A stretch of DNA of 64,000 bases from a virus: IMG/VR virus record IMGVR_UViG_3300030040_000144, positions 37,244 to 101,243 of that record; one strand, 5' to 3'. This document shows, in pieces, positions 17,699 through 39,177 of this stretch. Position numbers and translations under genes: made by a program. The notes under the pieces are model-generated. The model was not told the origin of the DNA and did no database searches. It saw nothing but the letters and a program-made list of their open reading frames with translations. The first letter of the stretch is position 1. Every line of letters begins with the position of its first letter.

Positions 17699-17765
17699 CA
17701 GACAAGAGGGAAGGGCTAGCCCTTCCCTCTCGATAATAAAAATAATAAAGATAATATATAAGATT

Positions 17766-18173
17766 ATGGTAAATGAAATTATAATGCTTATTTCAGCAAG
17801 TGCCGACAGTTTCGGCGCATGCTCTGAGAACTGCCCCGGCATCTGGGCGGCTGGTGATACCGTGGAAGCGTGCAAAGCCGACGCCGTACGAGCTATTGAA
17901 CTAATAAAAAAGAACATGCCGCGCGAGGACTGGCCCGAACCTTTAAAGGCTAAAGAATATACTATAACATGGCAATATGATATAGAAAGCTTTTTACTTT
18001 TCTTTGGTAGCTTCATTTCGCTAGCCGGTATGGAGCGTATAACGGGCATAAATCAAAAACAATTATGGGCCTATATGCACGGGCGCAAAAAGCCACGACA
18101 GGCACAGAAAGAAAAGATAATAAACGCTTTGCACCGTTTCGCCCATGACTTGGCGGCGGCTGTTATACTTTAG
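17766..18173 (+). CDS. hicB: HicB-family antitoxin
   Basis: The N-terminal PG...G.T.EA......AIEL segment is HicB-like. The C-terminus is HTH-like (ITGINQKQLWAYMHGRKKP). It lies directly downstream of hicA. Confidence 0.6.
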   Translation: MVNEIIMLISASADSFGACSENCPGIWAAGDTVEACKADAVRAIELIKKNMPREDWPEPLKAKEYTITWQYDIESFLLFFGSFISLAGMERITGINQKQLWAYMHGRKKPRQAQKEKIINALHRFAHDLAAAVIL

Positions 18174-19087: not shown

Positions 19088-21133
19088 ATGAAAGCAACAT
19101 TAAACCAAATCGCCGAGAACTTAGTAAAAGTATTAACAGACAAGAGCGAAAGCCGCATATATTACACGGATGCCGAGCAATACGCCGGCGTGTGCGGTTG
19201 GTGCGGTGTAATGTCTCCATTATCTCGCCCGGCATATTACAAAACCTTTGGCAAGGAAACCACCGACGCAGCAGAAGCGAAAGCACGCGAAATCATCGCC
19301 GAGAAGGAAGCAGCACGCACACGTATGGAGTATTACAAGCACGGACAGGAAGCCGACAGACTGGAAGGAGTGCCCACCGTGGGCGGCTTCTTCTGGGCTG
19401 ATAACAGCGGCCTAAAGTGCGACGGCGGCCGCGGACTATTCGAAGAGCTGCACGCCCTGAACTACTACACCGACACCCTAAACACTCCCCCCCGCCTTTG
19501 CTGCGTTAATGAAATTATACGAGTATCTGAAAAAGACTTTGCCCGCCCTGCCCTGGCTGATGAGCTCGTAAAGGCTCACAATTTAAAGGGCTTCTGTCGT
19601 TCCGAGGATGTGGACGACGACGAAGACATGACCGCCATATATAACGATCCTGAGAAATTAGCGACATTCTACACCGTCGGCGCTCTCGTTGTGTCGCCAT
19701 CGGGCAAATACTACCTTATAGACACCGAGGGCAACAACTACGCCCGATATATATACGTTCCCATAGAGTGGCCCGTATTACTCGCCGACGAGGTGGCAAC
19801 AGTCAAGGCAGAGGAGGAAGCACGACAGAATGAAGACGCACGACAGGAAGCGGAAGCGAAGGCGCAGCGCCTCGCACAGTATCGCGCACGTTGTGCCAAA
19901 TGGTTACACCTCATGAAGGATGTACGCCCGTTAGAGGCTGACAAGAAGACTACCAGCCGTCAAGTAATTAACGCCCGAAAGGCTAATATCTTGGCAATGT
20001 GCCGCGCCGCATTTCCCGGCGTTAAGTTCTCCGTTAAAGTGCGTTATGGCTGGGGGGCTGATTTTACATTATCATGGACCGACGGCCCAACCGTCGAGGA
20101 GTTCAAGGAAAATACAGATCTGTCTTTATTCTGCCGCTGCCGTGACACCTTCAACGGCTGGGACGATAGCACGGGCGTAGATTACGCCGAGTTCGACGAC
20201 TTCGCACGCCTCACGATGGGCAGCAATGGCGGCGATATTGAGACGGAAAGAGTAATGAGCGACGACGCACGCACCGAGATTTTAACGCAGATTTTCGCCG
20301 TAGTACCAGCGGCCAACGACCGCGATAAATACGGCTACACACTTGCGCACGATTACACCGCTAACGAGGCGGCAGCGGTGGCCGCAGCCCTGGGCGTGGA
20401 AGTGGCCGACATCTTGCCGCACGGTTGTACAGATAACGCCGAAACCATCGCCCGCCGTGCGTGGAATGTGCGCAGCTATACCCCAATTATAGCGCCAGAA
20501 CCTACCGACCCGAAGCCGGGCAAGGCTCAGACAGTAGACACCGACACCACCGACACAGCAGACGAAGCACCCGCCGAGGGCTTGCAGCTTGTGGAGACTG
20601 CCGAAGGCGTGGCGGTGGTAGGCGATAGCCGCACCACATACCGCAACCGCAAGCAGATCAAGGCACACGGGGCAACATGGAACAAGACCGCCCAACAGTG
20701 GCAAGCCACAGAACCGGAAGCCGTGGCACGCCTTCGCGAATGGTTCGGGGTAACTGATACCCCGACCGCCGAAGAGTGCGGCACAGCGAACGAGGACGAG
20801 CCACAGAGCGACAGCACCGAACCGATAGAAGCCGCCAACATTGAACCGACGAGCGTAAACGCCACGTTATACGATAGCAGCGAAAACACCACCCCCACCG
20901 ACACCGCACCAACGGCGAACGCTGGCAGCCCTGAAGAACTCAGCGGCGAAAACGCCGACACTATAGCCCTACAGTGTACCGCCGCAGAGTTCACGCCCGA
21001 AGAATTCCGCACACTGTACGGCAATTATAGGCAAGAGCACCCCGACGACATACCGCGGCATAACGTCAAGCCGGAGCGGTTCGGCAGCGTTACCCCGCTT
21101 TTCCTTTCACTTGGTGACCGTGTGATAAATTAA
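19088..21133 (+). CDS. Large acidic multi-domain hypothetical protein, possibly polyvalent-like
   Basis: 681 aa. A central Lys/Arg-Ala coiled-coil-like segment, a long acidic Thr/Asp-rich low-complexity C-terminal part, and a short Y.NRK.IKAHGATWNK segment. Function not recognisable. Confidence 0.35.
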   Translation: MKATLNQIAENLVKVLTDKSESRIYYTDAEQYAGVCGWCGVMSPLSRPAYYKTFGKETTDAAEAKAREIIAEKEAARTRMEYYKHGQEADRLEGVPTVGGFFWADNSGLKCDGGRGLFEELHALNYYTDTLNTPPRLCCVNEIIRVSEKDFARPALADELVKAHNLKGFCRSEDVDDDEDMTAIYNDPEKLATFYTVGALVVSPSGKYYLIDTEGNNYARYIYVPIEWPVLLADEVATVKAEEEARQNEDARQEAEAKAQRLAQYRARCAKWLHLMKDVRPLEADKKTTSRQVINARKANILAMCRAAFPGVKFSVKVRYGWGADFTLSWTDGPTVEEFKENTDLSLFCRCRDTFNGWDDSTGVDYAEFDDFARLTMGSNGGDIETERVMSDDARTEILTQIFAVVPAANDRDKYGYTLAHDYTANEAAAVAAALGVEVADILPHGCTDNAETIARRAWNVRSYTPIIAPEPTDPKPGKAQTVDTDTTDTADEAPAEGLQLVETAEGVAVVGDSRTTYRNRKQIKAHGATWNKTAQQWQATEPEAVARLREWFGVTDTPTAEECGTANEDEPQSDSTEPIEAANIEPTSVNATLYDSSENTTPTDTAPTANAGSPEELSGENADTIALQCTAAEFTPEEFRTLYGNYRQEHPDDIPRHNVKPERFGSVTPLFLSLGDRVIN

Positions 21134-21170
21134 ACCTTATATTATAGACTGATAAAAAAATTACTTAATC

Positions 21171-21452
21171 ATGAAGGCAAAAGTAACAACACCTACAGCG
21201 CCGAGCGTTAGCGCCTCGGATGTGGTAAAATCTTTAGGAGTGTGTACAACTCTTTGTGTAATGTATGTATTACAAGGCTTCGCCAAGCTGAAAAGTTTGG
21301 CGAAGTGCGCAGCCCTTAGCGTATGCCGGTGGCTCAACGATCGCCACAACGTAACCGATCAGGAAGACCCCGTAATGATGACGGGCTGGCAGTGCCTCGG
21401 CTGCGGTGTGTTGGTTCTATTCGCAGCGGTGGCAATCTGCATCAGGTGGTAA
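21171..21452 (+). CDS. Small membrane protein
   Basis: 93 aa with two hydrophobic segments. Confidence 0.3.
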   Translation: MKAKVTTPTAPSVSASDVVKSLGVCTTLCVMYVLQGFAKLKSLAKCAALSVCRWLNDRHNVTDQEDPVMMTGWQCLGCGVLVLFAAVAICIRW

Positions 21453-21512
21453 CATTCGCTTCGTTATAGCGTGTGCGAGAAATTAGAGATTTTCAATTTT
21501 AACAAAAATAAC

Positions 21513-22142
21513 ATGATTTTACAATTAACAAAACAGAGTTCCGGCCAAGAAATAAAGGCGTACTTTGAGAAAGTATTAAGAATGACAAGAGACAGCGAGG
21601 AATTTCCCGTTAATCTCGATGATGTATGGCCGTTAGTATATTCAAGAAAAGACAAAGCGGTAAGAGCATTACAAAGTAACGATTTATTTATGCAAAACGT
21701 TGATTATCAGGTTTTACCCCAAAATGGGGAAAACTCTGGGGTTTTAGCCCAAAACGGGGGAAAAGTCCAAAACGGTCGCCCGACAGAGATTTACATGCTC
21801 TCCGTTCCTTGCCTTGAGTTTTTCATCGCCCGCAAGGTTCGCCCCGTGTTCGAGGTCTACCGACAGGTATTCCACAAGGTAGCGAGCGGTGAGCTGATAC
21901 AAGTGGCTCCGGCTTATTCTGAACCTTGTGACTTCGAGACAACCATCACGCCGTTTACAGACTATGCCGGGGAGGTCTACAAGCGATGGAAAAGGCTTTT
22001 TGAACTCTCGGATGATAAAGTACGGCTCCGGAAAGATTACCAAAATTGGCTCATTACATATCGAAACTTCTGCTATTATACCAACCAATTGGCATATCTG
22101 GAAACGATGGAGAAACTGGATGGGGCCTGTTACCTCACATAA
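21513..22142 (+). CDS. Hypothetical protein, possibly KilA-N/Bro-N-like
   Basis: Start at the internal MILQL.... The N-terminal FPVNLDDVWPLVYSRKDKAVRAL weakly resembles antirepressor-type N-domains. Confidence 0.3.
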   Translation: MILQLTKQSSGQEIKAYFEKVLRMTRDSEEFPVNLDDVWPLVYSRKDKAVRALQSNDLFMQNVDYQVLPQNGENSGVLAQNGGKVQNGRPTEIYMLSVPCLEFFIARKVRPVFEVYRQVFHKVASGELIQVAPAYSEPCDFETTITPFTDYAGEVYKRWKRLFELSDDKVRLRKDYQNWLITYRNFCYYTNQLAYLETMEKLDGACYLT

Positions 22143-22191
22143 CGGGCAATTAATAATCAATAACTATTAATATATAAAAAAAAACAAAACA

Positions 22192-22374
22192 ATGGAAGAA
22201 AAAACAGTAATTACAATCGACATGGACAAAGCAAGCCTCCGTGAGGCAATGACACGAATCATAGAGTATATCACACTTACCCCTCCCAATCCCGACGAGT
22301 TCGGCAACAAGGAGCTCGTAGAGTACAACCTGGGTCTCAACGCGCTATTCTCCTGCCTACGTCAGACGTATTGA
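22192..22374 (+). CDS. Small conserved protein, paralog of 14801..14986
   Basis: 60 aa, ...RIIEYITLTPPNPDEF..., homologous to the ORF at 14801. Confidence 0.35.
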   Translation: MEEKTVITIDMDKASLREAMTRIIEYITLTPPNPDEFGNKELVEYNLGLNALFSCLRQTY

Positions 22375-22385
22375 TGAAATACTTG

Positions 22386-22436
22386 TCCCGTGCCCGGTAT
22401 GGCCTTTAACGGTGGTTCGATTCCACCGGCGGGAAC
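22386..22436 (+). other. tRNA 3'-end-like fragment (T-arm plus acceptor 3' strand), a candidate att core
   Basis: GGTGGTTCGATTCCACC (a perfect T-arm with the GTTCGAwTCC loop) followed by GGCGGGA + A. Upstream TCCCGTG can pair 6/7 with the acceptor 3' strand. At ~50 nt it is too short for a complete tRNA. Confidence 0.4.
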
Positions 22437-22583
22437 ACAAGAAAAAAAATTATCAGATATGATAAAAATCTGTTATCAAATTTGGTACATTCGATTTTAA
22501 TTACTAAATTTGTAACAGTTAAGAAAAACAGACAATAAACCCTTTAAAGCTGGTGGCAACAGTTTAAATTCAGCACCGAAAAT

Positions 22584-23072
22584 ATGAAGACTTTTAACGG
22601 AAAAACCATCACAAAGAAACAGATCGTCAGCGTTATCCGCACCCAGGACCCTACACAGATTTACCGCCTTTATCATCATGTTTACGGCGTTAAGCCAGTA
22701 GATGTGGAGGTATGCAAGTTCATCCAGCAGTTTGCCCCCACCAATAAGCTTTACAAGGCTGCTTATAACATAGCGTGCCGCTGCGCCCGCAAGTTTCACC
22801 CTGTAGTGACTCAGGGCGAGTTCGACAAGTACAGATCATGGGAAAAGGCTAACTGCCGTCAAATAACTATGCAGCGCCTACGAGACGAAATAGCCCGTGG
22901 TGTGGATGGTTACACCAAGCGTCCTATAATGGGAGACACTAACCTATACTTCGCCTCTCCGGTTTACGGGCATCATGACTACAACAAGTTTATAGCCTTA
23001 CCCATAAGCGGCAACGAGCGTTTCTGTGAGCTTATCTGCCGATTGGCCGACAAGTACATTCCCAGAGGTTAA
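22584..23072 (+). CDS. Hypothetical protein
   Basis: 162-aa ORF. Confidence 0.35.
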   Translation: MKTFNGKTITKKQIVSVIRTQDPTQIYRLYHHVYGVKPVDVEVCKFIQQFAPTNKLYKAAYNIACRCARKFHPVVTQGEFDKYRSWEKANCRQITMQRLRDEIARGVDGYTKRPIMGDTNLYFASPVYGHHDYNKFIALPISGNERFCELICRLADKYIPRG

Positions 23073-23255
23073 GTAACCTATAATATAATATATAAACAAT
23101 AATCAACTTAACGCTGCGCTATCGGCATGACGGGCAATATATCATGAACAAAGAAGTAGCAAAAAACTTAATTCTACTGCGTCACGGTAAAGCGGATTTT
23201 TTCTGAAGATAGACTTTTTATTAATCATTATTTATAACATTAATTACAGATCATC

Positions 23256-23696
23256 ATGAACGAAGACAGATATACACTTACTCAGGCAGCCGAACCCGGC
23301 TACTGGACGGTGGCCGACCACGAAAACGGCATAGAGATAACCTTTAAGGAAAAAGCGTACAACACTACGCAGATGATAAACTATACCGATGCAGCGCAAA
23401 GCAAAACAATGGCTTTCGCCATGAAACTGCCCACCTATATGCGTGAGATGGCCGATTGGATAAGCCAGAATCATTATAACATCGCCATGCCGTCACTGAC
23501 AGAAAAACGTTTATCTATGGGGCAGCGTATAAAAGAGCTGCGCACCGAGCAGGGATTAACCCTTCAGCAGTTGGCGGACTATGCAGGCATTACCAGAGCG
23601 AATCTCAGCAACATAGAGGGTGGCCGTTACTCTGTAGGCCTCGATGTGCTGAACCGTATCGCGATCGCCCTGGGTGTGGAACTGAAGATGGAGTAA
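23256..23696 (+). CDS. Regulator with a C-terminal XRE-type HTH
   Basis: C-terminal LTLQQLADYAGITRANLSNIEGG is an HTH_XRE. The N-terminal ~90 aa are unknown. Confidence 0.45.
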   Translation: MNEDRYTLTQAAEPGYWTVADHENGIEITFKEKAYNTTQMINYTDAAQSKTMAFAMKLPTYMREMADWISQNHYNIAMPSLTEKRLSMGQRIKELRTEQGLTLQQLADYAGITRANLSNIEGGRYSVGLDVLNRIAIALGVELKME

Positions 23697-23952
23697 CCTT
23701 GTTGTTATGGTATAACTCCAGAATTAGTATATTATAATAAAATACACATTTTATCAATTATCCCCTTTTAAAACATTTATAAACCATGAAAAAGATTATC
23801 ACTTACACGGCAGTTGCCATTGCCGTTGCAGCTACCGGAGTTCTGCTTTTCTCATTCTTAGGCGTAGCCGTATTTTTTCTGCCGCTTCTGTGCGGAGCGT
23901 TTAAAAGGTAAAACTTCGTCAGTATATTTAAAACAACCTTATTATAAAAGTC

Positions 23953-24918
23953 ATGAAGAACAATCTTATGCAGTGCGCCATCGCAGCGATGGCGTGCCTG
24001 GTGTGCGCATCGTGCGCCAACGAAAGCGAATCTTTAATTTCACAACCCTCTACCGCCACTCCAGCCGTGGGTAAAGCCCGTGTAAAGCTGGTATGCGGTA
24101 TGGATGTGAGCGTAACGTCATCTCCGTTGCGCCACGTTACGGGCGGCAGCCGTGCGGCGCTTACCGCTAATGGTAAAGCCCTTACCCACCTCTATATAAT
24201 GGACTACGACAAGCAGAGCGGAAAGCTGCTGCAAGTGCTGCACCAAACCAGTACGGCAACCGATTTTGCTGAACCCGATCTTATGCTTGATTATGGCGAG
24301 CATACACTGAAGGTAGTGGCTACACGCAGCGAATCGCCACAGCTTAGCCTGGCATCAGGGGCGGCATGGAATCATACGCCCGATGTGCTTACTCCTGTCA
24401 GCGCCGATGTGCCGGTATCGGTAACGAGCAGCAAAACCTCTGATACGTTCGGTGCACAGAAAGATGTTACCGTAAACATCGGTAAAACCACTACCGTAAA
24501 CATCACTCTGGAGCGATTGGTGGCTATGTTGATAGTAAACAGTACAGATCAGTTCCCTACAGATTGTACCACTATGCAGCTTAGCTTGGACGAGCACCGT
24601 GCATTTGCCTTTGATGGCTTCGACGTTACGGAAGCGGTGAAAAATCAGCGTACCAGCGATGTTTCTTCTTTGCGTGGTATTACAGGAACTACCATAAACT
24701 ACTTTTTTCTTGTACCATCGGCCGGCTATAGCACCGACATTACCTTCACCATGAACCGTACTGATGGAGCGCCATATTCAGTGATAACCGTGCCCAATGT
24801 GCCGTTTACCCGAAACCATCAGACCACCGTAACAGGTTCGTTCTACACCCATCAGCAAGACTTTAAGATTTCGTTAGCTGATACGTGGAGCGACGAACGG
24901 CATGAGATAGACATTTAA
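23953..24918 (+). CDS. Lipoprotein
   Basis: MKNNLMQCAIAAMACLVCASCANE lipoprotein signal. A beta-rich 321-aa body. Confidence 0.45.
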   Translation: MKNNLMQCAIAAMACLVCASCANESESLISQPSTATPAVGKARVKLVCGMDVSVTSSPLRHVTGGSRAALTANGKALTHLYIMDYDKQSGKLLQVLHQTSTATDFAEPDLMLDYGEHTLKVVATRSESPQLSLASGAAWNHTPDVLTPVSADVPVSVTSSKTSDTFGAQKDVTVNIGKTTTVNITLERLVAMLIVNSTDQFPTDCTTMQLSLDEHRAFAFDGFDVTEAVKNQRTSDVSSLRGITGTTINYFFLVPSAGYSTDITFTMNRTDGAPYSVITVPNVPFTRNHQTTVTGSFYTHQQDFKISLADTWSDERHEIDI

Positions 24919-25593: not shown

Positions 25594-25910
25594 GTATTTT
25601 GTGCATTTGTGTAATTGTGCAAACGTGCAATCGCATAAAGACACGAAAACATATTTGTGCAAATACACAAATGCACGCACAAACACACAAACGCATAAAC
25701 AAACGCATACACGTACAAATCAACAAACGAACAAACAAACAAACGAATAAATACATGCACATATAAACACACAAACGCATGAACAAACATACATGCGTTT
25801 ATACGCATACATAAACAAACAAATAAACACATACACACATACATGCACGCATAAACGAACAAACAAACGCATAAACATATAAACAAACATACGTTTGTGC
25901 TTGCTTATAT
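25594..25910. repeat. Degenerate CAAAC/ACAAACG microsatellite-like repeat tract, with an inverted GTTTG copy at 26020-26100. A candidate centromere (parS) or host-factor-binding array upstream of parA.
   Basis: About 300 nt composed almost entirely of caaac(g/a)/acaca units. The flanks gtgcatttgtg..gtgcaaacgtgca recur at 25601 and 26049. A similar tract lies at 59620-59690. Confidence 0.55.
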
Positions 25911-26183
25911 GAATTTTAATTTTTAAATTTGCAATATCAAAACACGGAGGCAGTAATGGAGGTGCCGTATGGCTCATCCCTCTGCTGAACCTTGACGACA
26001 GTACACCGTGAGCGCGTGCAAACGTGCGTTTGTCTGTCTGTTGGTTTGTGCATTTGTGCAAACGTGCATTTGTTGGTTTGTGCATTCGTGTATTGATTTA
26101 TGTGCTACCCCCTGGTGCATACGTGCTTTTAATGAAGCTTGATAATAAATTTTATAAATTAATTAGAAATACTTTTTTAGACT

Positions 26184-27053
26184 ATGGAAGAAAAACTTAA
26201 AGAAGTGCTCGCCTTCGTGAATCACAAAGGCGGAGTAGGTAAGACAACAACAGTGCAGAGCCTTGCAGCCGGGCTAAGAACTTTCGGCAAAGGTCAGTTC
26301 GGTAAAGATAAAGACGGCAACGACCGCATCCCCCGCGTACTTATAATAGACCTCGATCCGCAAGCGTGTGTTTCGTTTCTCTCCGGTTGGAGTGAAACAA
26401 AGAACGTGGGCAAACCCACCATGTACGATGCGCTGGTGCAGCAAAGTCAGATGCCGGTGTATAAGGTAAACGAAGGTATATACCTGGCTCCGGCTTCGAG
26501 CCGACTGATAGGTATAGAGCCGTTCCTCAATCAGATGGCAGTCCCCAGAAAGGCGTTGTGTAAGCTGCTGGCTAAACCATTAATGGAAATGGAAGGTACG
26601 GAGCTGCACGATGAAGGCACTTTTAATGTGAACGAGGCGTTCGACTACGTGCTGATAGACTGTCCTCCTGCCATGTCGCTTCTTACATACAACGCACTTA
26701 CAGCGGCTACCAGTGTGGTACTGCCAGTGCAACTTGAAATGCTCGCTACAAAAGGTATAGCCGAGATTATCAATGCCGTAAAAGAAACTCGCGAAGACCT
26801 GAATCCCGACCTCGACATCAGAGGCTTGCTTATGGTCATGAGCAACGATCAAACCAAGGCTACCAAGCAGTTCAAAGAATATCTGGGAGACAAATTTGGT
26901 GATTATATGTTCGACTCTTATACTCGCCGTGACACCAAGATGGTAGAAGCCCAGGCTATGAACGAAGATATATTTTCTTACGCCCCACAGAGCAGGGTAG
27001 GCGAGGACTATGAAAATTTTACTAAAGAAATCATGGCTAGTATGCCACAATGA
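26184..27053 (+). CDS. parA: ParA/Soj-family partition ATPase
   Basis: Deviant Walker A VNHKGGVGKTTT near the N-terminus. 289 aa. Confidence 0.85.
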   Translation: MEEKLKEVLAFVNHKGGVGKTTTVQSLAAGLRTFGKGQFGKDKDGNDRIPRVLIIDLDPQACVSFLSGWSETKNVGKPTMYDALVQQSQMPVYKVNEGIYLAPASSRLIGIEPFLNQMAVPRKALCKLLAKPLMEMEGTELHDEGTFNVNEAFDYVLIDCPPAMSLLTYNALTAATSVVLPVQLEMLATKGIAEIINAVKETREDLNPDLDIRGLLMVMSNDQTKATKQFKEYLGDKFGDYMFDSYTRRDTKMVEAQAMNEDIFSYAPQSRVGEDYENFTKEIMASMPQ

Positions 27054-27577
27054 AATGTTTAACCGCGTTAATATTATACTTTATGGCAAGACCTGTAACA
27101 TCTAAGGTCAAGAAATTCAGCTTGACCGAATCGGAAGTAGTAGAAGAAAACGAACGCATACTATCTCAGAAGACAGAACGGCATACACCTGCCGCTAAGG
27201 AGGAAACCGCACCGCACGATACCGCTCAGCCCGATACCGAACCGCAGCAATCCGATGCAGTGCAACCGCAGGCAACTACACAGACTGCTACATCTACGCC
27301 TCAGTCTGTAGCCGTGACTCCGGAAACCACACCGCAGCAGCCCGCACCAACGGAACAGACCTCTTCCGCCTCTGTCGGATCTCCGGCGACCGACGGACTG
27401 GAGGAGCTGGCGGCTATGCGCAAGCCTAAAGGCAAGAAAACGGAAAACGGAATCACGGTTTATGTGCCGATGGAGTACTATGAGCGCATTGCCTTAATGA
27501 AAATGCGCACCGGAATACCTATTCGGGATTTGGCTCTGCAAGCCGTCATTGAGTTTATTGATAGGAATATGGCATAA
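27050..27577 (+). CDS. ParG-like ribbon-helix-helix centromere-binding protein with a disordered Pro/Thr/Gln-rich N-terminal region
   Basis: Overlaps the parA stop (ATGA). The C-terminal GITVYVPMEYYERIALMKMRTGIPIRDLALQAVIEFI has an RHH (beta-alpha-alpha) pattern. Confidence 0.45.
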   Translation: MKCLTALILYFMARPVTSKVKKFSLTESEVVEENERILSQKTERHTPAAKEETAPHDTAQPDTEPQQSDAVQPQATTQTATSTPQSVAVTPETTPQQPAPTEQTSSASVGSPATDGLEELAAMRKPKGKKTENGITVYVPMEYYERIALMKMRTGIPIRDLALQAVIEFIDRNMA

Positions 27578-27662
27578 ACCTACGTTTTTGTGCACCAAAA
27601 CCTCCCTTTTTGTGTACCTAAACCTCCGTTTTTATGTACGTAAACCTCCCTTTTTGTTTACC
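27576..27662 (+). repeat. Four 22-bp iterons (aaacctcc[c/g]tttttgtgtacc), the inverted set
   Basis: Four tandem copies with 22-bp periodicity. They are the reverse complement of the set at 27844-27930. Confidence 0.7.
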
Positions 27663-27843
27663 AAGTGCGTTGTAAACACTTGATTTACAAATAATTCTGA
27701 ACCTCTTAATATAAGATAATATAATAGGTTTTTTATTGTTATTGATTATATAAAAGAGTATATACTATAGATATAACAGTTTATATTATATTATATTAAG
27801 GGATTTATTACAGACTGATTATTAATGGTTTACATGATAGTTG

Positions 27844-27930
27844 GTACACAAAAAGGGAGGTTTAAGTACACAAAAAGGGAGGTTTTGGTACACAAAAAGG
27901 GAGGTTTAAGTACACAAAAAGGGAGGTATG
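27844..27930 (+). repeat. Four 22-bp iterons (gtacacaaaaagggaggttt), the direct set abutting the rep start
   Basis: Four tandem copies. The two sets flank a ~180-bp, >80% AT segment (27663-27843), a putative DNA-unwinding element. The rep ATG follows within 20 nt. Confidence 0.7.
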
Positions 27931-27946
27931 AAAAAAGATAGAAGAC

Positions 27947-29524
27947 ATGGCTAAGAAGAAAAAAACAGAAGACGAGGTAAGACTTGCGCTTGAAGACCAT
28001 TGCTGGATCAATACTCCGGTAGCTTACACTATATATAGCAAGAGCTTTTCGCTGGTGCAGCAGGATGTGATGCTGCAAGTTAGCGGTAAGCTCCAGAGTC
28101 ACTTCTCCAAGTTCCTGAACGAGCAGCGTTATCTAAATAAAGAAGATCCTCAGAGCGGTATAGCCGCAGAAGACCTCGCAAACATAGAACCTATACGTTT
28201 GCGTTTGGCCGACCTCGGAATCAGCAGTAACCACTATGACGAGGTGGTGCAGAAAGTCAATGATATAACATCCATAACTTTTAGGCTTCCGCGTTTCGAC
28301 GTGAAAACCGGGCTGCGTAAAGGTGACGACTATATGCCTATATTCAGTAAGATTTTTATTCCTAAGAGTTTTGCCACAAAAGAAGGTAATTCTTACGGCT
28401 ATAACGGAAGCAACATAAAGACCGACGAGGAAGGCAAGGTGATAAGCGATTTCAGACGCGACGGTTTTGTGGAGGTAACTATCAATATAGAAGCTGCGAA
28501 AGCTATTTTTAACATGAACAGAGGCTATATCAACCACCTGGAGCGTATAGCGTTTTTCTGCAACTCGGTGTTTACGTCGCGGCTTTATCTGCTTTTAATG
28601 AAGTACGTCAGCAAAGGACAGATGCACCCCTCTATAGACTATGTAGAACTGAAAGACTTTCTCGGTATGTATGAAAGGCAACCAAAATCGGATGTCGTAG
28701 TGAACGAGAAATATCAGAAATTCTCTCAGTTCCGAAAGCAGGTACTGAACGTGGCACGCCGTGACATGGAGCGTCTTTGCGCCGAAAACAAGATAGAAAT
28801 AATGTTGCAGTGCACGGCGGAGTGCGAAGACGGCTATGAGCCGCTTTATAAAGGCACGGTGAAGCGTGGCAACCCTGAAAAGATACGCTTTCATATAAAG
28901 CGTACTCCGCTCGGTGTAGCACGCGAGATGGAAGTGCACAGAGGTTCATCAGAGCAGCGTCTGTGTGATAAAATAATGGAGCGTTACCCTACGCTCGACG
29001 AGCAGAGACTGATAGCTTTTGTAGCCGATGTGCCGGAAGATCTGTGGTCGGACTTCAAGAAGTACGCCTACAATGGAGTGCCCAAGGCGGTAGAAAGCCC
29101 ACATCAGTGGGACGGTACTCCCGAAGAATTTATTTTCTACATCATGGGCCAATGGGTGGATAGCCGCAAGAGAAAAGCCACTCCTGTAGCGCAGCAGCCG
29201 AATTTGTTCAGTCAGTCTGATTTTGCCGTCCCGATTCCCCTAGTTCCTGTAGTTGAAGACTACCCCGGAAAGTATGCCGAAGAATGGCAGACGTTCATGT
29301 CGCAGTACGATGGTGCATTGAAGCCGTTGCTTATGCAAGCTACGCACTATGGAGCTTCAGCAGCCGGATTCATGTCGATACGTTTTCCTGATCGGAAAAC
29401 ACTTGATGCCTTTAACGCAGAGTGCGACAAGAACAAGGCTGCATACACCGAGCTTATGGCACTTCTGTCTCAGCTTATAGGTAAAGCCGCCGCACGTGTA
29501 TTAGTGCGAGGCGTGGCCGACTGA
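27947..29524 (+). CDS. rep: Plasmid-type replication initiator (Rep)
   Basis: 525-aa ORF immediately downstream of the iteron/AT-rich origin and of parA-parG. Basic N-terminus. No contrary motif. Confidence 0.55.
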   Translation: MAKKKKTEDEVRLALEDHCWINTPVAYTIYSKSFSLVQQDVMLQVSGKLQSHFSKFLNEQRYLNKEDPQSGIAAEDLANIEPIRLRLADLGISSNHYDEVVQKVNDITSITFRLPRFDVKTGLRKGDDYMPIFSKIFIPKSFATKEGNSYGYNGSNIKTDEEGKVISDFRRDGFVEVTINIEAAKAIFNMNRGYINHLERIAFFCNSVFTSRLYLLLMKYVSKGQMHPSIDYVELKDFLGMYERQPKSDVVVNEKYQKFSQFRKQVLNVARRDMERLCAENKIEIMLQCTAECEDGYEPLYKGTVKRGNPEKIRFHIKRTPLGVAREMEVHRGSSEQRLCDKIMERYPTLDEQRLIAFVADVPEDLWSDFKKYAYNGVPKAVESPHQWDGTPEEFIFYIMGQWVDSRKRKATPVAQQPNLFSQSDFAVPIPLVPVVEDYPGKYAEEWQTFMSQYDGALKPLLMQATHYGASAAGFMSIRFPDRKTLDAFNAECDKNKAAYTELMALLSQLIGKAAARVLVRGVAD

Positions 29525-31299: not shown

Positions 31300-31707
31300 C
31301 TACCCTTGGTTCTCAAGGTATTTCTTGATGGTTTCTTGACTAACATTCCCTATGGATGAAACGAAATAACCGTCTGTCCAAAAAGTGTGTTCTTTGTAGA
31401 AATTGTGCCTGAGAAAATCACCATACTTTTTCCAAATGGCAGTAGTGGACATCTGCTTTAATCGCTTGACAATCTGTAGTGGTGACAGTTTAGGTACACT
31501 TCTGACCATCATGTGCAAGTGGTCTTTGTCCGTTTCCATAACTTCAATATCAAAGTCGGACATTTCTGATATGTTCCGCATGATATTCTTCATGTCGTGT
31601 TCGATTGCTCCGACAAGCAACTGCTTTCTGTATTTACATACGAAAATGACATGATACTTGATGAGGAATTTAGAGTGGTTCTTTGAAATGTATTCTTTCT
31701 GAATCAT
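31300..31707 (-). CDS. tnpA: IS200-like Y1 (HUH) transposase TnpA
   Basis: 135 aa. HUH motif HLHMMV and the catalytic Tyr region GYFVSS. Confidence 0.85.
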   Translation of the reverse strand: MIQKEYISKNHSKFLIKYHVIFVCKYRKQLLVGAIEHDMKNIMRNISEMSDFDIEVMETDKDHLHMMVRSVPKLSPLQIVKRLKQMSTTAIWKKYGDFLRHNFYKEHTFWTDGYFVSSIGNVSQETIKKYLENQG

Positions 31708-31742
31708 AACGTTTTCTGATTTTAAATGATTAACTTTGCATT

Positions 31743-32984
31743 ATGTTACGAACATACAAATATAGAATATATCCGACAGATGAGCAGAAGGTCTTGTTCG
31801 CAAAGACTTTCGGCTGTTGCCGCTTTGTCTATAATTGGGCTTTGAACATGAAAATCACAGCATACAAGGAGCGCAAGGAAACTCTTGGCAACGTGTATCT
31901 GACCAACTTGATGAAGAAGGAACTGAAGAGGGAATACGAATGGCTCACGGAGGTTAATTCACAGTCGTTGCAGAGCGCATTGCGCAATCTTGATACGGCT
32001 TACACAAACTTTTTCCGCAACACGAAAGGCGTTGGTTTCCCCCGTTACAAGTCGCGCAAGGACAGGCAGAGTTTTCTATGTCCCCAACATAGCCGTGTCG
32101 ATTTTTCCAAACACACAATAACCATACCAAAAGCAAAAGACATACCCGCAGTTTTGCACCGCAAGTTCAATGGTACAGTGAAGACTGTTACTATAAGCAT
32201 GACACCTTCGGGCAGATACTTTGCTTCTGTTCTTGTGGATACGGATATACAGGAAATCCCAAAGTCGGCAACGAACTCCAGTACAACCATTGGCATTGAC
32301 CTTGGCGTCAAGACTTTGGCAGTATGCTCCGACGGACGGACCTTTGACAATCCCAAGAACTTGCGCAAAGGTCAGAACCGCCTTGCGCTGTTGCAAAAGC
32401 GTCTGAGCCGTAGGCAGAAAGGCTCTTCAAACAGGAACAAGGCTCGCATAAAGGTCGCCCGTTTGCAAGAACGCATATCCAACCAACGTAAGGACAACCT
32501 TCACAAAATTACCCATACACTCACGCACGACAGCCAAGTGCGTACCATCTGCATGGAGGATTTGAATGTGAAAGGCATGACACGCAATCACCATTTGGCT
32601 CAGTCAGTGGCCGACGCTTCCTTTGGCATGTTCCTTACGATGTTGGAATACAAGTGCAAGTGGTATGGTGTGAATTTGGTAAAGATAGACCGTTTTGCCC
32701 CAAGCTCGAAGACTTGTGGCAAATGCGGCTATGTGTACAAAGGATTGAAGTTGAGCGAGCGCAGTTGGGAGTGTTCCGTTTGTGGAACACGCCACGACCG
32801 CGACTATAACGCAGCTTGCAATATCAAAGAGTTTGGCTTGAAAGCCCTACCCACGGAACGTGGGAAAGTAAAGCCTGTGGACTGCCCTCTTGTGGATGGC
32901 CGACCTCGTGTCCTAAAAAGCAATGGCAGGAAGAAGCAGGAAAAGCGAGGAGGTGCAGTATCTCCGAAGCCGCTAAGTCTTTAG
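31743..32984 (+). CDS. tnpB: TnpB (IS605 OrfB; RNA-guided RuvC-like nuclease)
   Basis: 413 aa. C-terminal CGKCGYVY...CSVCG zinc finger and a RuvC-like DNACNI segment. Its 3' end abuts the right-end hairpin, where an omega-RNA would be encoded. Confidence 0.85.
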   Translation: MLRTYKYRIYPTDEQKVLFAKTFGCCRFVYNWALNMKITAYKERKETLGNVYLTNLMKKELKREYEWLTEVNSQSLQSALRNLDTAYTNFFRNTKGVGFPRYKSRKDRQSFLCPQHSRVDFSKHTITIPKAKDIPAVLHRKFNGTVKTVTISMTPSGRYFASVLVDTDIQEIPKSATNSSTTIGIDLGVKTLAVCSDGRTFDNPKNLRKGQNRLALLQKRLSRRQKGSSNRNKARIKVARLQERISNQRKDNLHKITHTLTHDSQVRTICMEDLNVKGMTRNHHLAQSVADASFGMFLTMLEYKCKWYGVNLVKIDRFAPSSKTCGKCGYVYKGLKLSERSWECSVCGTRHDRDYNAACNIKEFGLKALPTERGKVKPVDCPLVDGRPRVLKSNGRKKQEKRGGAVSPKPLSL

Positions 32985-33832: not shown

Positions 33833-34330
33833 ATGACAAAAGAAAATATTGAAAAAATATCGGTTACGTTCGCTTTTTTTGGTATTGAAGAGATTTCGGC
33901 GGAAGAGAAGAAGCGTTTAATTGATTTTTTATCAGATAAAGGCTTTTCTTCTACTACTTTTTATCTGCGATTCTTTCAGAAAGGCTTTGCTCAGTGGGAG
34001 ATTATAGGAGTAAACGAATGTAAAAGACAGTTTTTAGCTATACCAGAAATAGCTCAGCTATTGTTGGAATACGTAGATTCTGATGCAGAAAAAGAAAACC
34101 GGGGCTATCTCTACACGTTAGCCTTGAATAATGAGGCAGGTTCTTTCTATAATAGTCTTAAACGAGTAAACAACGGCCTCTGTATGAAGTTCATTGACTT
34201 TATGCAGCAGAGAGGCATGAGCACCGGCACGGTGATAAAGAGATTCTCGTCGGACAACTGGAAGCCTTGGGAGGTGGACGGAATAACCAATTTGCTTTGT
34301 CAGTACAATGAAAAACAATCAGCATCATGA
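33833..34330 (+). CDS. Hypothetical protein (first early gene)
   Basis: 165-aa ORF. Confidence 0.35.
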   Translation: MTKENIEKISVTFAFFGIEEISAEEKKRLIDFLSDKGFSSTTFYLRFFQKGFAQWEIIGVNECKRQFLAIPEIAQLLLEYVDSDAEKENRGYLYTLALNNEAGSFYNSLKRVNNGLCMKFIDFMQQRGMSTGTVIKRFSSDNWKPWEVDGITNLLCQYNEKQSAS

Positions 34331-34992
34331 TAGATATTACTTTCGACCTTGAAACTTGCGCACGTTGTCCCAACGCTGCGGTCATGAGCATTGCAGCTCA
34401 AGTGTGGAACAGACACGCCAACGGCTCGCCGTTTACGGAATGGCATCCCGATGCCGAACCAAGATACAAGACTTTCTATTCACATATAGACTTGCGAGGC
34501 ATGTTTCTTGACGGTTTTTCGTTCGACAGTGCTACGGCGCAGTGGTGGAAGCAGCAAAGCCCCGAAGCTAAGGCGGAAGTGCTGGCAAATGATAGCGACG
34601 ACAGCCCATGTGTGCCTATAAATACCGCTATTGAAAACTTTTTCGACTGGATAAAAGACATCAGTCAAGAAACCGCCGATGAGGTTTTTTTATGGTCGCA
34701 AGGTACCGACTTCGACGTGGCTATATTACGCAATATCTGCTACCGATACCGCCTTGAGACTCCGGTGAAGTACACAAACTACAGAGACCACCGCACCTTT
34801 TTCATGGAAGGCGCTAAGACTATATGCGATGTGGCAGGTTCGGACTTCGACCCAAAACATGCTTATACGCTTGTAGACGAGTACGACGGAGAAGGAGTGC
34901 AGCATTCGCCTCTGTTCGACTGCCGTCGCAGCATATACTCTACGTGGCAGATGATGACTCATCTTAGATGCCTCGGTAAAAGTGGAGACTGA
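34327..34992 (+). CDS. DnaQ-like DEDD 3'-5' exonuclease
   Basis: Exo I IDITFDLETC, Exo II SQGTDFDVAIL, Exo III HSPLFDCRRS (DEDDh-like). Confidence 0.6.
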   Translation: MIDITFDLETCARCPNAAVMSIAAQVWNRHANGSPFTEWHPDAEPRYKTFYSHIDLRGMFLDGFSFDSATAQWWKQQSPEAKAEVLANDSDDSPCVPINTAIENFFDWIKDISQETADEVFLWSQGTDFDVAILRNICYRYRLETPVKYTNYRDHRTFFMEGAKTICDVAGSDFDPKHAYTLVDEYDGEGVQHSPLFDCRRSIYSTWQMMTHLRCLGKSGD

Positions 34993-35411
34993 TGTCATAT
35001 AAAAGTCATTTATATCGCCCCTATGTGCCTAACCGTAGCAATAAGAAAAAGTCCGGCAGACCTACGCCTCATGCTTACCTGCATCGCATAGCCTATACGG
35101 AAGTCATGCGAGGCATAAATGACGAGATTCCCGCCTTGATGTTTTACGCACCGTTCGAGTTGTTGAAAGATGCCTGCGAGCATCTGTTTAAGTTGATGAA
35201 CGGCAGGGTGGGGAATCTCATCATAAAAAACAGCCATTCATGCCGTGTAAAAAATGGCAAATGCTATTGGCGGGTAGAAGTACACATAGTAAACCTGGAC
35301 GAAGCATTGATGTCTCTGTCTGACTTTACGATGCTGCTTATTGCCCACATGAAGAATATCTGCAATTGCACAATCAAGCACTATCGGCTTGAGACGTTTC
35401 TTAACTTGTAA
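34992..35411 (+). CDS. Hypothetical protein
   Basis: 139-aa ORF. Confidence 0.3.
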   Translation: MSYKSHLYRPYVPNRSNKKKSGRPTPHAYLHRIAYTEVMRGINDEIPALMFYAPFELLKDACEHLFKLMNGRVGNLIIKNSHSCRVKNGKCYWRVEVHIVNLDEALMSLSDFTMLLIAHMKNICNCTIKHYRLETFLNL

Positions 35412-35444
35412 AAAGTAACTATTTAACAACATTATTTTAAAGAC

Positions 35445-39119: not shown

Positions 39120-39177
39120 ACAGATTGAGCTTATATACTGAATTACAATATTTTACAAACATTTAAAATATAAAGCT

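Follow-up and report, generated by a model that had tools for sequence, protein, structure and literature searches.

The window, as the whole stretch of 64,000 nucleotides analysed here is called, carries at positions 25,594 to 29,524 a segment made up of two repeat arrays around a promoter-like box, the genes for a ParA partition ATPase and a small candidate centromere-binding protein, two iteron sets around an AT-rich spacer, and the gene for a replication initiator, Rep (Table 1). The original prediction had placed ParA, the repeat tracts, the iterons, the AT-rich region and Rep in this segment, and each of them was recovered there.

Table 1. Features of the window (positions counted from its first nucleotide)
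Feature	Position	Strand	Evidence or remark
HicA toxin (~17519-17698) and 135-aa partner (17766-18173)	17519-18173	+	PF07927 HicA_toxin, precomputed, identical gene in L001
Upstream centromere-like array, A/C-rich degenerate repeats, core CAAAC	25594-25900	+	Periodicity, repeat families
Promoter-like box, between both arrays	25907-25936	+	Read from sequence
Downstream array, inverted, GTTTG / GTGCA units	26010-26100	+	Between promoter-like box and parA
ParA partition ATPase, 289 aa	26184-27053	+	AAA_31, E=1.4e-35; phrog_164 'ParA-like partition protein', E=7.5e-48
Small centromere-binding-protein candidate, 164 aa	27083-27577	+	ORF open from 27050
Left iteron set, four 22-bp iterons, 0-3 mismatches, inverted	27576-27662	-	Repeat search
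AT-rich spacer, candidate DNA-unwinding element (DUE)	27663-27842		27680-27800 = 80-90% AT
Right iteron set, four 22-bp iterons, 0-2 mismatches	27843-27929	+	Repeat search
Rep initiator, 525 aa	27947-29524	+	AlphaFold model, Foldseek, profile search, tblastn
Phage replication module, downstream of rep	34327-44801	+	phrog_255, Rv2179c-like, DNA_pol3_beta domains
DnaQ-like exonuclease	34327-34992	+	Part of replication module
Primase/TOPRIM-like protein, 1224 aa	35445-39119	+	21% identical to Polaribacter phage primase/TOPRIM
Beta clamp	43617-44801	+	Part of replication module
Large terminase (TerL) homologue	51439-53433	-	tblastn, 31% identity, E=4e-38, to annotated Microcystis phage TerL
Holin candidate	57844-58401	+	PF05105 Phage_holin_4_1, weak, precomputed
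Tape-measure protein, N-terminal part	59697-64000	+	PF10145 PhageMin_Tail, weak, on full-length L007 product

Architecture of the par/rep segment

The upstream array contains 14 copies of CAAAC, all on one strand and in a single phase modulo 4 (background per equal-sized window: mean 0.3, maximum 6). Its phasing is a strict 4 nt (8 nt), with an autocorrelation of 0.55-0.60 at lags 4, 8 and 12 and of 0.2 at odd lags. The downstream array pairs with the tract 25,660-25,713 through inverted repeats I6-I8. Within the promoter-like box, TAAATTTG at 25,924-25,931 fits the Bacteroides -7 consensus TAnnTTTG (predicted promoter), and the block ATGAATTATAATTCTTAAATTTGCAAC is found at the same place in relatives whose arrays otherwise differ.

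ParA has the deviant Walker A motif KGGVGKT (NHKGGVGKTT in the translation), lacks an N-terminal DNA-binding domain and scores under the cut-offs of the NCBIfam ParA/RepA partition models; its best four matches among 72,556 plasmids were all large extrachromosomal elements or plasmids of Segatella (37-42% identity). The small protein consists of a basic N-terminal peptide, a disordered linker and a C-terminal strand-helix-helix; in the AlphaFold model an extended segment leads into two helices (residues 121-164, pLDDT 81-92). It had been described as an RHH ParG-like protein; an RHH fold of the C-terminus is predicted, but searches yielded no family match and no significant sequence or fold match, solved RHH proteins included.

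The eight iterons share a 21/22-bp unit, GGTACACAAAAAGGGAGGTTT, with 0-3 mismatches and a spacing of exactly 22 bp, and the right set ends 17 nt upstream of the rep start codon. No further copies (up to 4 mismatches) occur elsewhere in the 64 kb, and no DnaA box (up to 1 mismatch) was found in the AT-rich spacer. The same iteron / AT-rich layout is present in relatives and in an S. copri plasmid. GC skew has two minima of almost the same depth, at 13.7 kb and ~26 kb, and does not single out the iteron origin.

Rep is divided into an N-terminal WH1-WH2 part (residues ~1-320), a helical middle (~321-410), a linker and a C-terminal alpha/beta domain (~436-525), the last of which is swapped among alleles. 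With the AlphaFold model (pLDDT 81.2, pTM 0.61) as query, the top 28 Foldseek matches in the PDB were all pi, RepE54 or 'Rep protein' complexes (best 2NRA, E=1.1e-6, TMt 0.69), and a profile search of the PDB returned pi only (E=5.5e-4). Rep itself stays below the Pfam Rep3_N threshold (18.2 bits, cut-off 22.4); homologues with 44-46% identity match PF01051 and PF21205. By its modelled fold Rep is a winged-helix iteron initiator of the Rep_3/pi/RepE type. It had no match in 50,697 GenBank phage records and matched 35 Bacteroidales plasmids, the best being from Segatella (tblastn to Segatella plasmid Reps, E=8e-39).

Upstream of the segment, the HicAB pair of the original prediction was confirmed for HicA, whereas the 135-aa partner, the supposed HicB, had no Pfam match; together the two possibly form an addiction module.

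The phage genome and its relatives

The source of the segment is a tailed phage of about 100 kb from human gut Bacteroidales; the host may be of Segatella/Prevotella or Phocaeicola-like genus. Phage genes in the window are the TerL homologue (phrog_2 match, weak), tape measure, holin candidate, DGR and replication module, whose 1224-aa primase/TOPRIM-like protein is 66-81% identical within the phage family. The tape measure continues past the window end and measures 2122 aa in the full contig (L007). The fibre gene is diversified by the DGR, variable and template repeats differing at adenines only. Capsid-module and lysis genes were located in the remaining 35 kb of the genome, beyond the window; in relatives this gap region encodes a virion protein (phrog_1383), a capsid-like protein (phrog_2087) and an endolysin. 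A capsid-like protein is 43% identical to that of Prevotella Lak phage.

The genome map closes on itself at ~98-100 kb without chromosomal flanks. A 97,750-bp contig has both ends inside an IS that is spanned by the window, and the longest contigs per Rep cluster, drawn from dozens of assemblies, accumulate at 99-103 kb. Look-ups with Rep, RT or the small protein gave no contig above 200 kb, and the module is also found on two contigs outside the ~100-kb peak (124,862 and 146,662 bp). IS-bearing chromosomal contigs in these samples reach at most 50 kb, and the missing long flanks are weaker evidence than they appear because short-read chromosomal contigs are short here. As had been predicted for the 64 kb, family searches matched no called window gene to integrase, resolvase or rve families; integrases were likewise absent from the flanks and from a relative's gap region, which with the window make up all but ~3-4 kb of the composite genome. 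The sole recombinases in the window are two IS transposases, one identical to chromosomal copies and the other belonging to an IS not found in relatives. These insertions and several cI-type HTH genes in the phage genome are counted as signs of residence in cells.

Conservation was assessed in 59 primase-anchored IMG/VR loci with sufficient upstream sequence, and ParA, the small gene and Rep occupy the same position in 59/59. Because the cassette is syntenic in these related genomes it is not a misassembly, one of the events that the original prediction had named as fatal to it. The components vary together: the iteron sequence (22-bp period) follows the Rep allele, the small protein's N-terminal peptide follows the ParA class (41/41 and 16/16), and the repeat-array motif follows the RHH type of the small protein (33/33 and 23/24), and in 8 recombinants the arrays go with the RHH domain and not with ParA. 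Two phage Reps (L171 and L190) are 56-58% identical over their full length to the Rep of plasmid NZ_CP085934 and are nearer to it than to other Reps of the phage family. At the sequence level, a plasmid origin of the module is supported by the affinities of Rep and ParA and by the shared gene order.

Proposed plasmid maintenance and alternative readings

The par/rep segment is best read as the maintenance module of a phage-plasmid whose non-lytic state is a low-copy circular plasmid (probability roughly 0.7). Cassette conservation throughout the family and kinship with the Segatella plasmid module indicate that the family probably persists as a plasmid; together with closure of the genome and the lack of an integrase, this conservation lends support to the P1/N15-like extrachromosomal prophage that had been suggested from the window. 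If this is true, the par/rep module stands in place of an integrase in this phage family. No description of the family as phage-plasmids was found in the literature; the earlier statement that this lifestyle is poorly described in Bacteroidota needs qualifying, since crAssphage, the published precedent in that phylum, has already been presented as a phage-plasmid (PMC10983915).

We infer binding, replication, partition, copy-number control and a lysogenic plasmid state as follows. Rep monomers would bind the eight 22-bp iterons around the AT-rich core, melt the core and start theta replication, probably through recruitment of the phage's own primase/helicase-like protein by the extra C-terminal domains of Rep; this recruitment is considered probable because there is no DnaA box. 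With four iterons next to the rep start codon, autorepression would be possible, and handcuffing, the pairing of iterons between copies, would limit copy number. In what would be a type Ib partition system, the RHH C-terminus of the small protein would bind the phased arrays that flank the par promoter, giving a partition complex and repression of the operon, while its basic N-terminal peptide would stimulate the ParA ATPase so that copies are segregated. HicA and its partner may contribute post-segregational killing.

Among the alternatives, the one that survives best, although we consider it unlikely, is a virulent or pseudolysogenic phage in which Rep and the iterons form an ordinary lytic origin and par serves only a transient carrier state or genome positioning, with no regulated plasmid prophage. 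A Rep-plus-iteron origin could serve lytic replication alone, the cassette lies directly upstream of the exonuclease, primase-like and clamp genes and shares their direction of transcription, neither a second origin or initiator nor a DnaA box was identified, and crAss-like Bacteroidales phages persist without classical lysogeny (PMC7969092, PMC10983915). However, all family members share a full partition system, complete with a co-evolving adaptor and centromere arrays, and such conservation is costly to explain without vertical inheritance. The HicA toxin, the cI-type HTH genes, the two IS insertions and the DGR are signs of residence, and the allelic shuffling looks like diversification by incompatibility.

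A phage-derived plasmid that has stopped producing infectious virions (a defective phage-plasmid or something resembling a tailocin or GTA) is improbable. More than 200 related contigs exist in IMG/VR, the capsid-like protein is 88-96% identical among many genomes, intact copies of TerL, tape measure, holin and endolysin are present, and the adenine-only changes of the DGR indicate ongoing retargeting of a receptor-binding protein, useful only to infectious particles. These observations outweigh the weak or indirect similarity by which portal and major capsid are recognised, the accumulated IS insertions and one variant contig without the capsid region between tape measure and fibre gene.

It is very improbable that the element is an integrating prophage with an integrase that is unrecognisable or encoded in the few kb outside the search. 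Many genes are without family assignment, the scan left ~3-4 kb of the composite genome, and two contigs measure 124,862 and 146,662 bp; yet the map is self-closing, contigs plateau at ~100 kb in dozens of assemblies, integrase, resolvase and rve matches are absent everywhere examined, and an integrated element has no need of a partition system. An assembly chimera or one-off insertion of a plasmid fragment into one phage contig, to which nothing but the plasmid affinity of Rep and ParA points, is refuted: the cassette is syntenic in 59 diverged relatives, and identical proteins recur in unchanged order across numerous independent samples and in MEGAHIT, SPAdes, Logan and JGI assemblies.

Comparison with known systems

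In the type Ib systems of TP228 (ParF-ParG-parH) and pSM19035 (delta-omega), a small ParA of the deviant Walker A type works with a small dimeric adaptor, whose flexible N-terminal tail activates ParA and whose C-terminus is an RHH domain. Their centromeres are built from very short repeats, arrayed upstream of the operon promoter and extending into it; parH has 4-bp boxes spaced 8 bp apart, and the omega sites consist of heptads. The window has the same layout, but its arrays are much longer (~300 bp plus ~90 bp) and its adaptor (164 aa, linker ~90 aa) has no detectable sequence similarity to solved RHH proteins.

With the Rep_3-type iteron initiators pi of R6K, RepE of F and RepA of pPS10, Rep shares the two-winged-helix fold and the tandem 22-bp iterons beside an AT-rich element and overlapping the rep 5' region. 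It differs from them in that the iterons form two inverted sets flanking the AT-rich core, no DnaA box is found, Rep falls under the Pfam cut-off, and the C-terminus is extended by ~200 residues, which make up two more domains that are exchanged between alleles.

The closest replicons compared belong to the Segatella copri complex (NZ_CP085934, 58.9 kb; NZ_CP137558, 93 kb; NZ_CP137560, 317 kb), to which the window Rep is 29-33% and ParA 37-42% identical. NZ_CP085934, the plasmid of S. copri DSM 18205, has the same order of parA, small gene, origin and rep, and its origin consists of inverted iterons, an AT-rich core and 7x22-bp direct iterons with the same 22-bp period; its small protein, however, has no detectable similarity to that of the phage. 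Metabolic genes are annotated on the Segatella replicons and phage genes are not, and their Reps lack an extra ~100-aa domain present in most phage Reps. Extrachromosomal elements of the S. copri complex showed no match to megaphages (Blanco-Miguez et al. 2023, PMC10635906).

P1, as generally known and as summarized in PMC10983915, is a non-integrating tailed phage of ~94 kb that persists as a low-copy plasmid. It is maintained by an iteron-binding Rep (RepA/oriR), by ParA-based partition (ParA-ParB-parS) and by a toxin-antitoxin pair (Phd/Doc). Its partition system is type Ia, with a large HTH-bearing ParA, an HTH ParB and a downstream parS, whereas the system described here is type Ib-like, with a small ParA, an RHH-like adaptor and upstream arrays. 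P1 infects another phylum and shows no sequence relationship, as Rep is without a match in GenBank phages.

CrAssphage (Carjivirus communis), also a gut Bacteroidales phage (~97 kb) without integrase, has been proposed to persist extrachromosomally as a phage-plasmid (PMC10983915) and is called a 'linear phage-plasmid' in a later title cited in PMC12823448. That case is built on RepL-type genes of a podovirus reported to be linear, with unrelated structural genes, whereas the present phage is tailed, encodes a tape measure and combines a complete ParA system with iterons and a Rep_3-like initiator. Extrachromosomal prophages of mycobacteriophages, with parABS and RepA-like or RNA-based origins, are likewise temperate phages in which partition and replication replace integration (PMC7157519). 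There, ParA/ParB are type Ia-like, the phylum is another one and integrase- and par-bearing relatives share one cluster, whereas the par/rep cassette is present in every examined member of the phage family described here.

Replication origin and partition locus

The phage is best explained as a phage-plasmid, in which an iteron-controlled, Rep_3-like theta replicon would maintain the genome and a type Ib-like ParA system would provide stability. All parts listed for 25594-29524 in the original prediction, i.e., repeat tracts, ParA, an RHH (ribbon-helix-helix) candidate, iterons around an AT-rich region and a Rep initiator, were present at that region. Their coordinates are summarized in the table together with those of the other features discussed.

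Features of the window (positions in nt)
Feature	Position	Size	Remarks
Variable repeat (VR)	4106-4233	128 nt	first copy of the repeat pair
DGR target ORF	ends at 4250	2232 aa	fibre-like protein, starts outside the window
Reverse transcriptase (RT) ORF	4923-6401		RVT_1 and phrog_1423
Template repeat (TR)	5054-5181	128 nt	second copy, just inside the annotated RT ORF
Homing-endonuclease-like ORF	14990-16516	508 aa	HNH/DUF723
'Large polyvalent protein'	19088-21133	681 aa	LPD29 domain
Small variable region	21133-23953		just upstream of the par cassette
HTH_3 protein	23256-23696	146 aa	C-terminal HTH_3 domain
A/C-rich array	25594-25900		upstream of parA; 14 CAAAC, one phase modulo 4
Shorter array	26010-26100		inverse orientation
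ParA	26184-27053	289 aa	AAA_31, E=1.4e-35; phrog_164 'ParA-like partition protein', E=7.5e-48
Small ORF (adaptor)	27083-27577	164 aa	directly downstream of parA; open from 27050, start at 27083 by gene callers on identical contigs
Iteron set 1	27576-27662	4 x 22 bp	exact 22-bp spacing; orientation opposite to set 2
AT-rich core	27680-27800		AT content 80-90%
Iteron set 2	27843-27929	4 x 22 bp	exact 22-bp spacing; orientation opposite to set 1
Rep ORF	27947-29524	525 aa	start codon 17 nt past the last iteron
IS200/IS605 unit	31300-32984		Y1 TnpA and TnpB/OrfB; just downstream of the rep region
Primase/TOPRIM-like protein	35445-39119	1224 aa	
Low-GC stretch	39000-42000		GC 37-40% vs about 48% overall
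Insertion sequence (IS)	49616-51420		38-nt terminal inverted repeats; DDE_Tnp_1/DUF772 transposase

The eight iterons show 0-3 mismatches to GGTACACAAAAAGGGAGGTTT, and no other copies (at up to four mismatches) were found in the whole 64 kb. Tandem 22-bp iterons which flank an AT-rich core and adjoin rep form the arrangement of a Rep_3-type origin. A DnaA box (TTATCCACA, at most one mismatch), which is common though not universal in Rep_3-type origins, was not found in 27560-27950. GC skew gave no clear independent indication of the origin, with nearly equal minima at 13.7 kb and at approximately 26 kb; the C-rich repeat array contributes to the second of these.

The assignment of Rep to the Rep_3 families, to which the original prediction had pointed, failed at the Pfam cut-off but is supported by the fold, a family profile and homologues. 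Rep scored 18.2 bits against Pfam Rep3_N (gathering cut-off 22.4) and 21 bits against NCBIfam RepM (cut-off 250); being below the Rep3_N threshold, it is not placed by its own sequence, and the placement comes from the profile, the Pfam matches of homologues and the fold. Precomputed matches to PF01051 and PF21205 exist for Rep homologues with 44-46% identity, and a profile built from 13 diverse Rep alleles yielded one significant match in the PDB, the pi protein of R6K (E=5.5e-4). The AlphaFold model, with 28 homologues as input, had a mean pLDDT of 81.2 and a pTM of 0.61. The top 28 Foldseek matches of this model in the PDB were exclusively iteron-plasmid initiators, among them pi, RepE54 of mini-F and 'Rep protein' complexes with iteron or DUE DNA; the best was 2NRA (pi), with E=1.1e-6 and a TMt of 0.69. 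The predicted structure comprises two tandem winged-helix domains (WH1-WH2), as in Rep_3/pi/RepE initiators. Rep is a divergent relative of the Rep_3 family, not a clean Pfam member.

In the model, WH1-WH2 occupies approximately residues 1-320; next come a helical domain, a linker predicted as disordered (residues 411-435) and, with good confidence, a C-terminal alpha/beta domain. The last domain also occurs in the Segatella plasmid Reps and would be expected to contact the replisome. An alignment of Rep alleles (including those of the related loci L124, L136 and L120) revealed a modular build, with a middle domain of approximately 100 aa restricted to the long alleles and a C-terminal domain of approximately 90 aa occurring in at least two types, which are swapped among the N-terminal (iteron-specificity) classes; the middle domain, too, has been swapped among alleles. 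The Rep of L136 combines a class-C N-terminus with a C-terminus of the window type.

Regarding the partition genes, ParA carries the deviant Walker A motif KGGVGKT at residues 15-21 (read in translation), inside an AAA_31 domain spanning residues 7-212. It is small and without an N-terminal DNA-binding domain, as is characteristic of type Ib. The adaptor, the candidate centromere-binding protein, yielded no family match in Pfam, PHROG or NCBIfam, and a profile of its C-terminal domain had no meaningful match in the PDB. Its model shows a disordered body and, at residues 121-164 (pLDDT 81-92), an extended segment plus two helices. Foldseek searches with this model returned nothing at E<1; the weak matches (E>1) include the RHH proteins CopG, PutA (DNA-binding domain) and MatP. 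As modelled, the C-terminus likely has the RHH topology, as in a monomer.

Background stretches as long as the A/C-rich array contain on average 0.3 and at most 6 copies of CAAAC, and the autocorrelation of the array is 0.55-0.60 at lags 4, 8 and 12, versus approximately 0.2 at odd lags. A box with TAAATTTG, which matches the Bacteroides -7 promoter consensus TAnnTTTG, sits between the two arrays and is kept in relatives with otherwise different arrays. Short-repeat arrays on both sides of a promoter-like box correspond to the layout of type Ib centromeres, and the region is a putative centromere of this type.

Allelic variation of the cassette and its plasmid relatives

The phage family was represented by 77 IMG/VR loci anchored on the 1224-aa protein (66-81% identity), of which 59, counting the window itself, were tabulated in full. 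ParA, the small gene and Rep were found at the same position in every anchored locus with enough upstream sequence; the cassette is thus a core feature of the family, and the same synteny rules out a misassembly or one-off insertion of the cassette. The flanking genes are conserved, and the cassette itself is an allele mosaic with at least four Rep-iteron types, two ParA types and two to three adaptor/centromere types, freely recombined. Clustered at 90% identity, the small partition protein forms more than 800 groups.

The Rep classes are approximately 57-66%, 33% and 26-28% identical to the window Rep. Each has its own iteron at a spacing of 21-22 bp, containing AAAAACGTAGG, TACATAAATAGGGA, TTTTGTAGTGACTT, TAGTAAATAGG or GGTAAACGAAAAG. 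The ParA proteins fall into two classes, approximately 74-85% and 45% identical to that of the window, which are tracked by the N-terminal peptide of the adaptor: the MAR..KK..F type in 41/41 cases and the MGFNW/MAKKF..TKVA types in 16/16. The C-terminal domain of the adaptor occurs in two main types, which are associated with the arrays upstream of parA, GIT(I/V)YVPM(E/K)YY with CAAAC/ACAAA-type arrays (33/33 loci) and GIV(V/I)(N/D)VP... with GTAC/ACGTA-type arrays (23/24 loci). All these counts are comparative evidence from mutually related loci and do not represent independent events. The association of array and RHH type is nevertheless informative because of eight recombinants, in which the first ParA class occurs together with the second C-terminal type and the arrays go with the C-terminal domain. 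The N-terminal tail of the adaptor thus appears to be specific for its ParA, and the three pairings (tail with ATPase, DNA-binding domain with centromere, initiator with iteron) match, at the level of sequence comparison, what would be predicted for type Ib partition and an iteron replicon.

In most relatives one or two copies of a gene for a lipoprotein-like protein of 185-188 aa, absent in the window, are located between the small gene and rep (e.g., L126:3656-4213 in one related locus and L122:2011-2574 and 2770-3333 in another; signal peptide MKKIISVLFALCLC...). The gene is possibly a moron, with expression in the plasmid state.

The main rival explanation, which is less probable, is that the Rep-iteron unit is simply the ordinary origin of the phage and that ParA merely supports a carrier state. 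It accounts less well for a conserved partition system that co-evolves in its parts.

Megablast of 22-32 kb found no match in GenBank phages or PLSDB plasmids, and tblastn found none for Rep among 50,697 GenBank phage records. Regarding plasmids, Rep matched 35 records by tblastn, all from Bacteroidales; the best matches belonged to Segatella copri and S. hominis (32.6% identity over residues 1-325, E=8e-39). These entries correspond to the plasmids and 'large extrachromosomal elements' reported for the S. copri complex (PMC10635906). Among 72,556 plasmids, the four best matches of ParA were all from Segatella (37-42% identity). The Reps of two related loci, L171 and L190, are 56-58% identical over their full length to an S. 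copri plasmid Rep, i.e., closer to it than to the other Reps of their own family. NZ_CP085934, a 58.9-kb plasmid of S. copri DSM 18205, has the same order of parA, small gene, approximately 370 bp and rep, and its intergenic design is also the same, with inverted iteron-like units, an AT-rich core and seven 22-bp iterons (GGTAAAyA...GTGGTTTwr) reaching the rep start codon.

Under the phage-plasmid explanation, the replicon and the partition system stem from the same pool as those of Segatella plasmids. It is conceivable, though on balance we rather doubt it, that this very abundant phage family and the Segatella plasmids and large extrachromosomal elements share a single pool of Rep/iteron and ParA/adaptor/centromere modules, and that the allele mosaic reflects diversification driven by incompatibility. 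If so, plasmid incompatibility would be a form of superinfection immunity between phages, and a phage could displace a secondary replicon of its host or be excluded by it.

Phage genome, closed map and signs of residence in cells

The window encodes a TerL homologue (31% identity to annotated terminases, E=4e-38), a holin candidate, a tape-measure protein whose gene extends beyond the window (2122 aa when complete, on the full contig) and, as replication genes, a DnaQ-like exonuclease, the 1224-aa primase/TOPRIM-like protein and a beta clamp. Searches of TerL and the 1224-aa protein against the PDB (phmmer) and Rfam and tRNA scans of the window returned nothing. The low-GC stretch between the primase-like and clamp genes contains small ORFs without a family.

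Many independent contigs from gut metagenomes encode proteins identical to those in the window. One of them, ERZ27287287 k141_220214 (97,750 bp), starts at approximately 51,259, passes the window end, re-enters the window start and stops at approximately 49,860. Both of its ends lie inside the IS at 49616-51420, which the window crosses uninterrupted, and two further assemblies also break in this IS (three independent assemblies in total). The phage map is therefore circular or circularly permuted and closes at approximately 98-100 kb, with approximately 35 kb outside the window, in favour of the original prediction, which had asked for circularity to be checked. Compared with the otherwise near-identical k141_220214, the window carries approximately 1.7 kb of extra sequence in the small variable region, including the HTH_3 protein.

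The original prediction had also looked to sequence beyond the window for capsid genes, and a capsid-like protein and a virion protein were found in the remaining part of the map (the gap region) in relatives. A scan of viral contigs with guanylate kinase for sequence beyond the window end gave no confirmed match. In the relatives, genes of the gap region code for phrog_1383, a virion structural protein, for phrog_2087, which is capsid-like and strongly conserved, and for endolysin, RtcB and methyltransferases. The capsid-like protein (L075:10001-11101 in a related locus, at approximately 82 kb on the closed map) was found on more than 200 IMG/VR contigs. A protein of the 540-kb Prevotella Lak megaphages shares 43% identity with it, and Tenacibaculum jumbo phages encode proteins at 33-36% identity, among them one with the annotation virion structural protein. 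Genes for virion structure, packaging and lysis thus share single contigs of approximately 98-100 kb with plasmid replication and partition genes, the combination by which phage-plasmids are recognized (Pfeifer et al. 2021, PMC7969092). One relative, L012 (ERZ27281985 k141_152315, 67,858 bp), has the target gene of the diversity-generating retroelement (DGR) within 3.3 kb after the tape-measure gene and is without the capsid/lysis block of approximately 25 kb seen in other genomes; it is a rearranged or deleted relative. The DGR itself is recognized by its repeat pair, in which 12/12 differences fall at adenines of the second copy, the template repeat/variable repeat signature; the first copy forms the C-terminus of the fibre-like protein.

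The statement in the original prediction that 64 kb contain no integrase also holds for the sequence scanned beyond the window. Scans of the window genes (direct scans and precomputed Pfam on identical contigs), of 11 kb of flanking sequence and of 21 kb of a relative's gap region gave no match to integrase, serine recombinase/resolvase or rve families; together they cover all but approximately 3-4 kb of the composite genome. The absence of an integration module is a further property of phage-plasmids (PMC7969092). The longest contigs for the Rep clusters were 99,229, 100,362, 100,373, 100,608, 100,724, 100,750, 100,856 and 102,955 bp, the longest contig for one Rep allele fell into the 50-200 kb class in 20/27 assembly blocks, and no contig above 200 kb came up for Rep, for RT, for one particular Rep allele or for the small protein. 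Contigs topping out near 100 kb are the pattern of a discrete replicon of approximately 100 kb; this saturation is weaker evidence than it appears because chromosomal contigs in the samples are short (those bearing the IS at most 50 kb). Two cassette contigs are well above 100 kb, ERZ1026786 NODE_10 (146,662 bp; L209) and one of 124,862 bp (cluster P0238), which may represent larger variants, integrated copies or concatemers formed in assembly. Integration, a defective element or misassembly is an unlikely explanation of a map that closes without a recognizable integration module, contains structural, packaging and lysis genes and recurs in independent assemblies.

Signs of residence in cells are the IS insertions, several cI/Cro-type HTH genes, some of them divergently oriented, and a hicA gene with its neighbour; HicA_toxin (PF07927) matches the 59-aa product, and the adjacent 135-aa protein has no Pfam match. 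The transposase of the IS at 49616-51420 is 100% identical to copies near Bacteroidota chromosomal genes (SusC/SusD, ClpB, LysRS) and was found in 164 assembly blocks. The IS200/IS605 unit is absent at its position from all IMG/VR relatives examined.

Regarding the host, the homology of Rep and ParA to Segatella plasmids and the similarity of the capsid-like protein to Lak phages point to Prevotella/Segatella. A scan of GTDB genomes with the Rep alignment gave a single match, a 27-kb contig of a 'Prevotella sp.' MAG, and hence no isolate lysogen; source names on homologues include 'uncultured Prevotella sp.' and 'Prevotellaceae bacterium', and source samples include Hadza and other gut metagenomes. 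An assignment of the genus through the IS was dropped: the LysRS beside a chromosomal copy (L197:11447-13174, on an IS-bearing contig) is 95% identical to the enzyme of a 'Phocaeicola sp.' MAG and 87-88% to that of Bacteroides, in conflict with Rep, ParA and the capsid-like protein, whose affinity is to Segatella/Prevotella. The IS may move between genera, or else the phage lineage lives in a Phocaeicola-like host; because of these conflicting signals the host is assigned no deeper than Bacteroidales.

Significance and comparison with known systems

Phage-plasmids have been described extensively for Proteobacteria, Firmicutes and Actinobacteria, whereas crAssphage is the only case from Bacteroidota met in the literature. 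Pfeifer et al. 2021 had crAssphage as a singleton and cautioned that Bacteroides-type clades are under-detected (PMC7969092); crAssphage has since been reported as a phage-plasmid, and the plasmid features which this source describes are RepL genes, predicted origins and a toxin-antitoxin system (PMC10983915). The original prediction that such a lifestyle is poorly described in Bacteroidota therefore needs to be qualified by the published case of crAssphage and otherwise agrees with the literature found, which, within an incomplete coverage, contained no description of a Prevotella/Segatella phage-plasmid or of the cassette of this family.

The phage family has a textbook low-copy replicon, an iteron Rep with a ParA system, fixed as a core trait of a large group of gut phages, and is notable for its size, for the clean three-way co-variation and for the link to the host's own secondary replicons. 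If the phage-plasmid reading is correct, lifestyle predictors based on integrases would misclassify this family. The cassette and its alleles would then offer ready-made parts, orthogonal by nature, for replication and partition in genetic tools for Prevotella/Segatella-type bacteria, for which few such tools are known, and the homology to the large extrachromosomal elements of Segatella would make replicon competition between phage-plasmid and host directly testable.

The cassette is like the maintenance region of P1 in function, whereas the type of the parts is different. It shares the fold and the iterons with the Rep_3 group, although the Pfam cut-off was missed and no DnaA box was found, and the ParA and the centromere layout with type Ib systems, although the RHH fold of the adaptor is a prediction. 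The partition side of the phage resembles ParF/ParG-parH of TP228 and delta/omega of pSM19035, and the replication side resembles pi and RepE.
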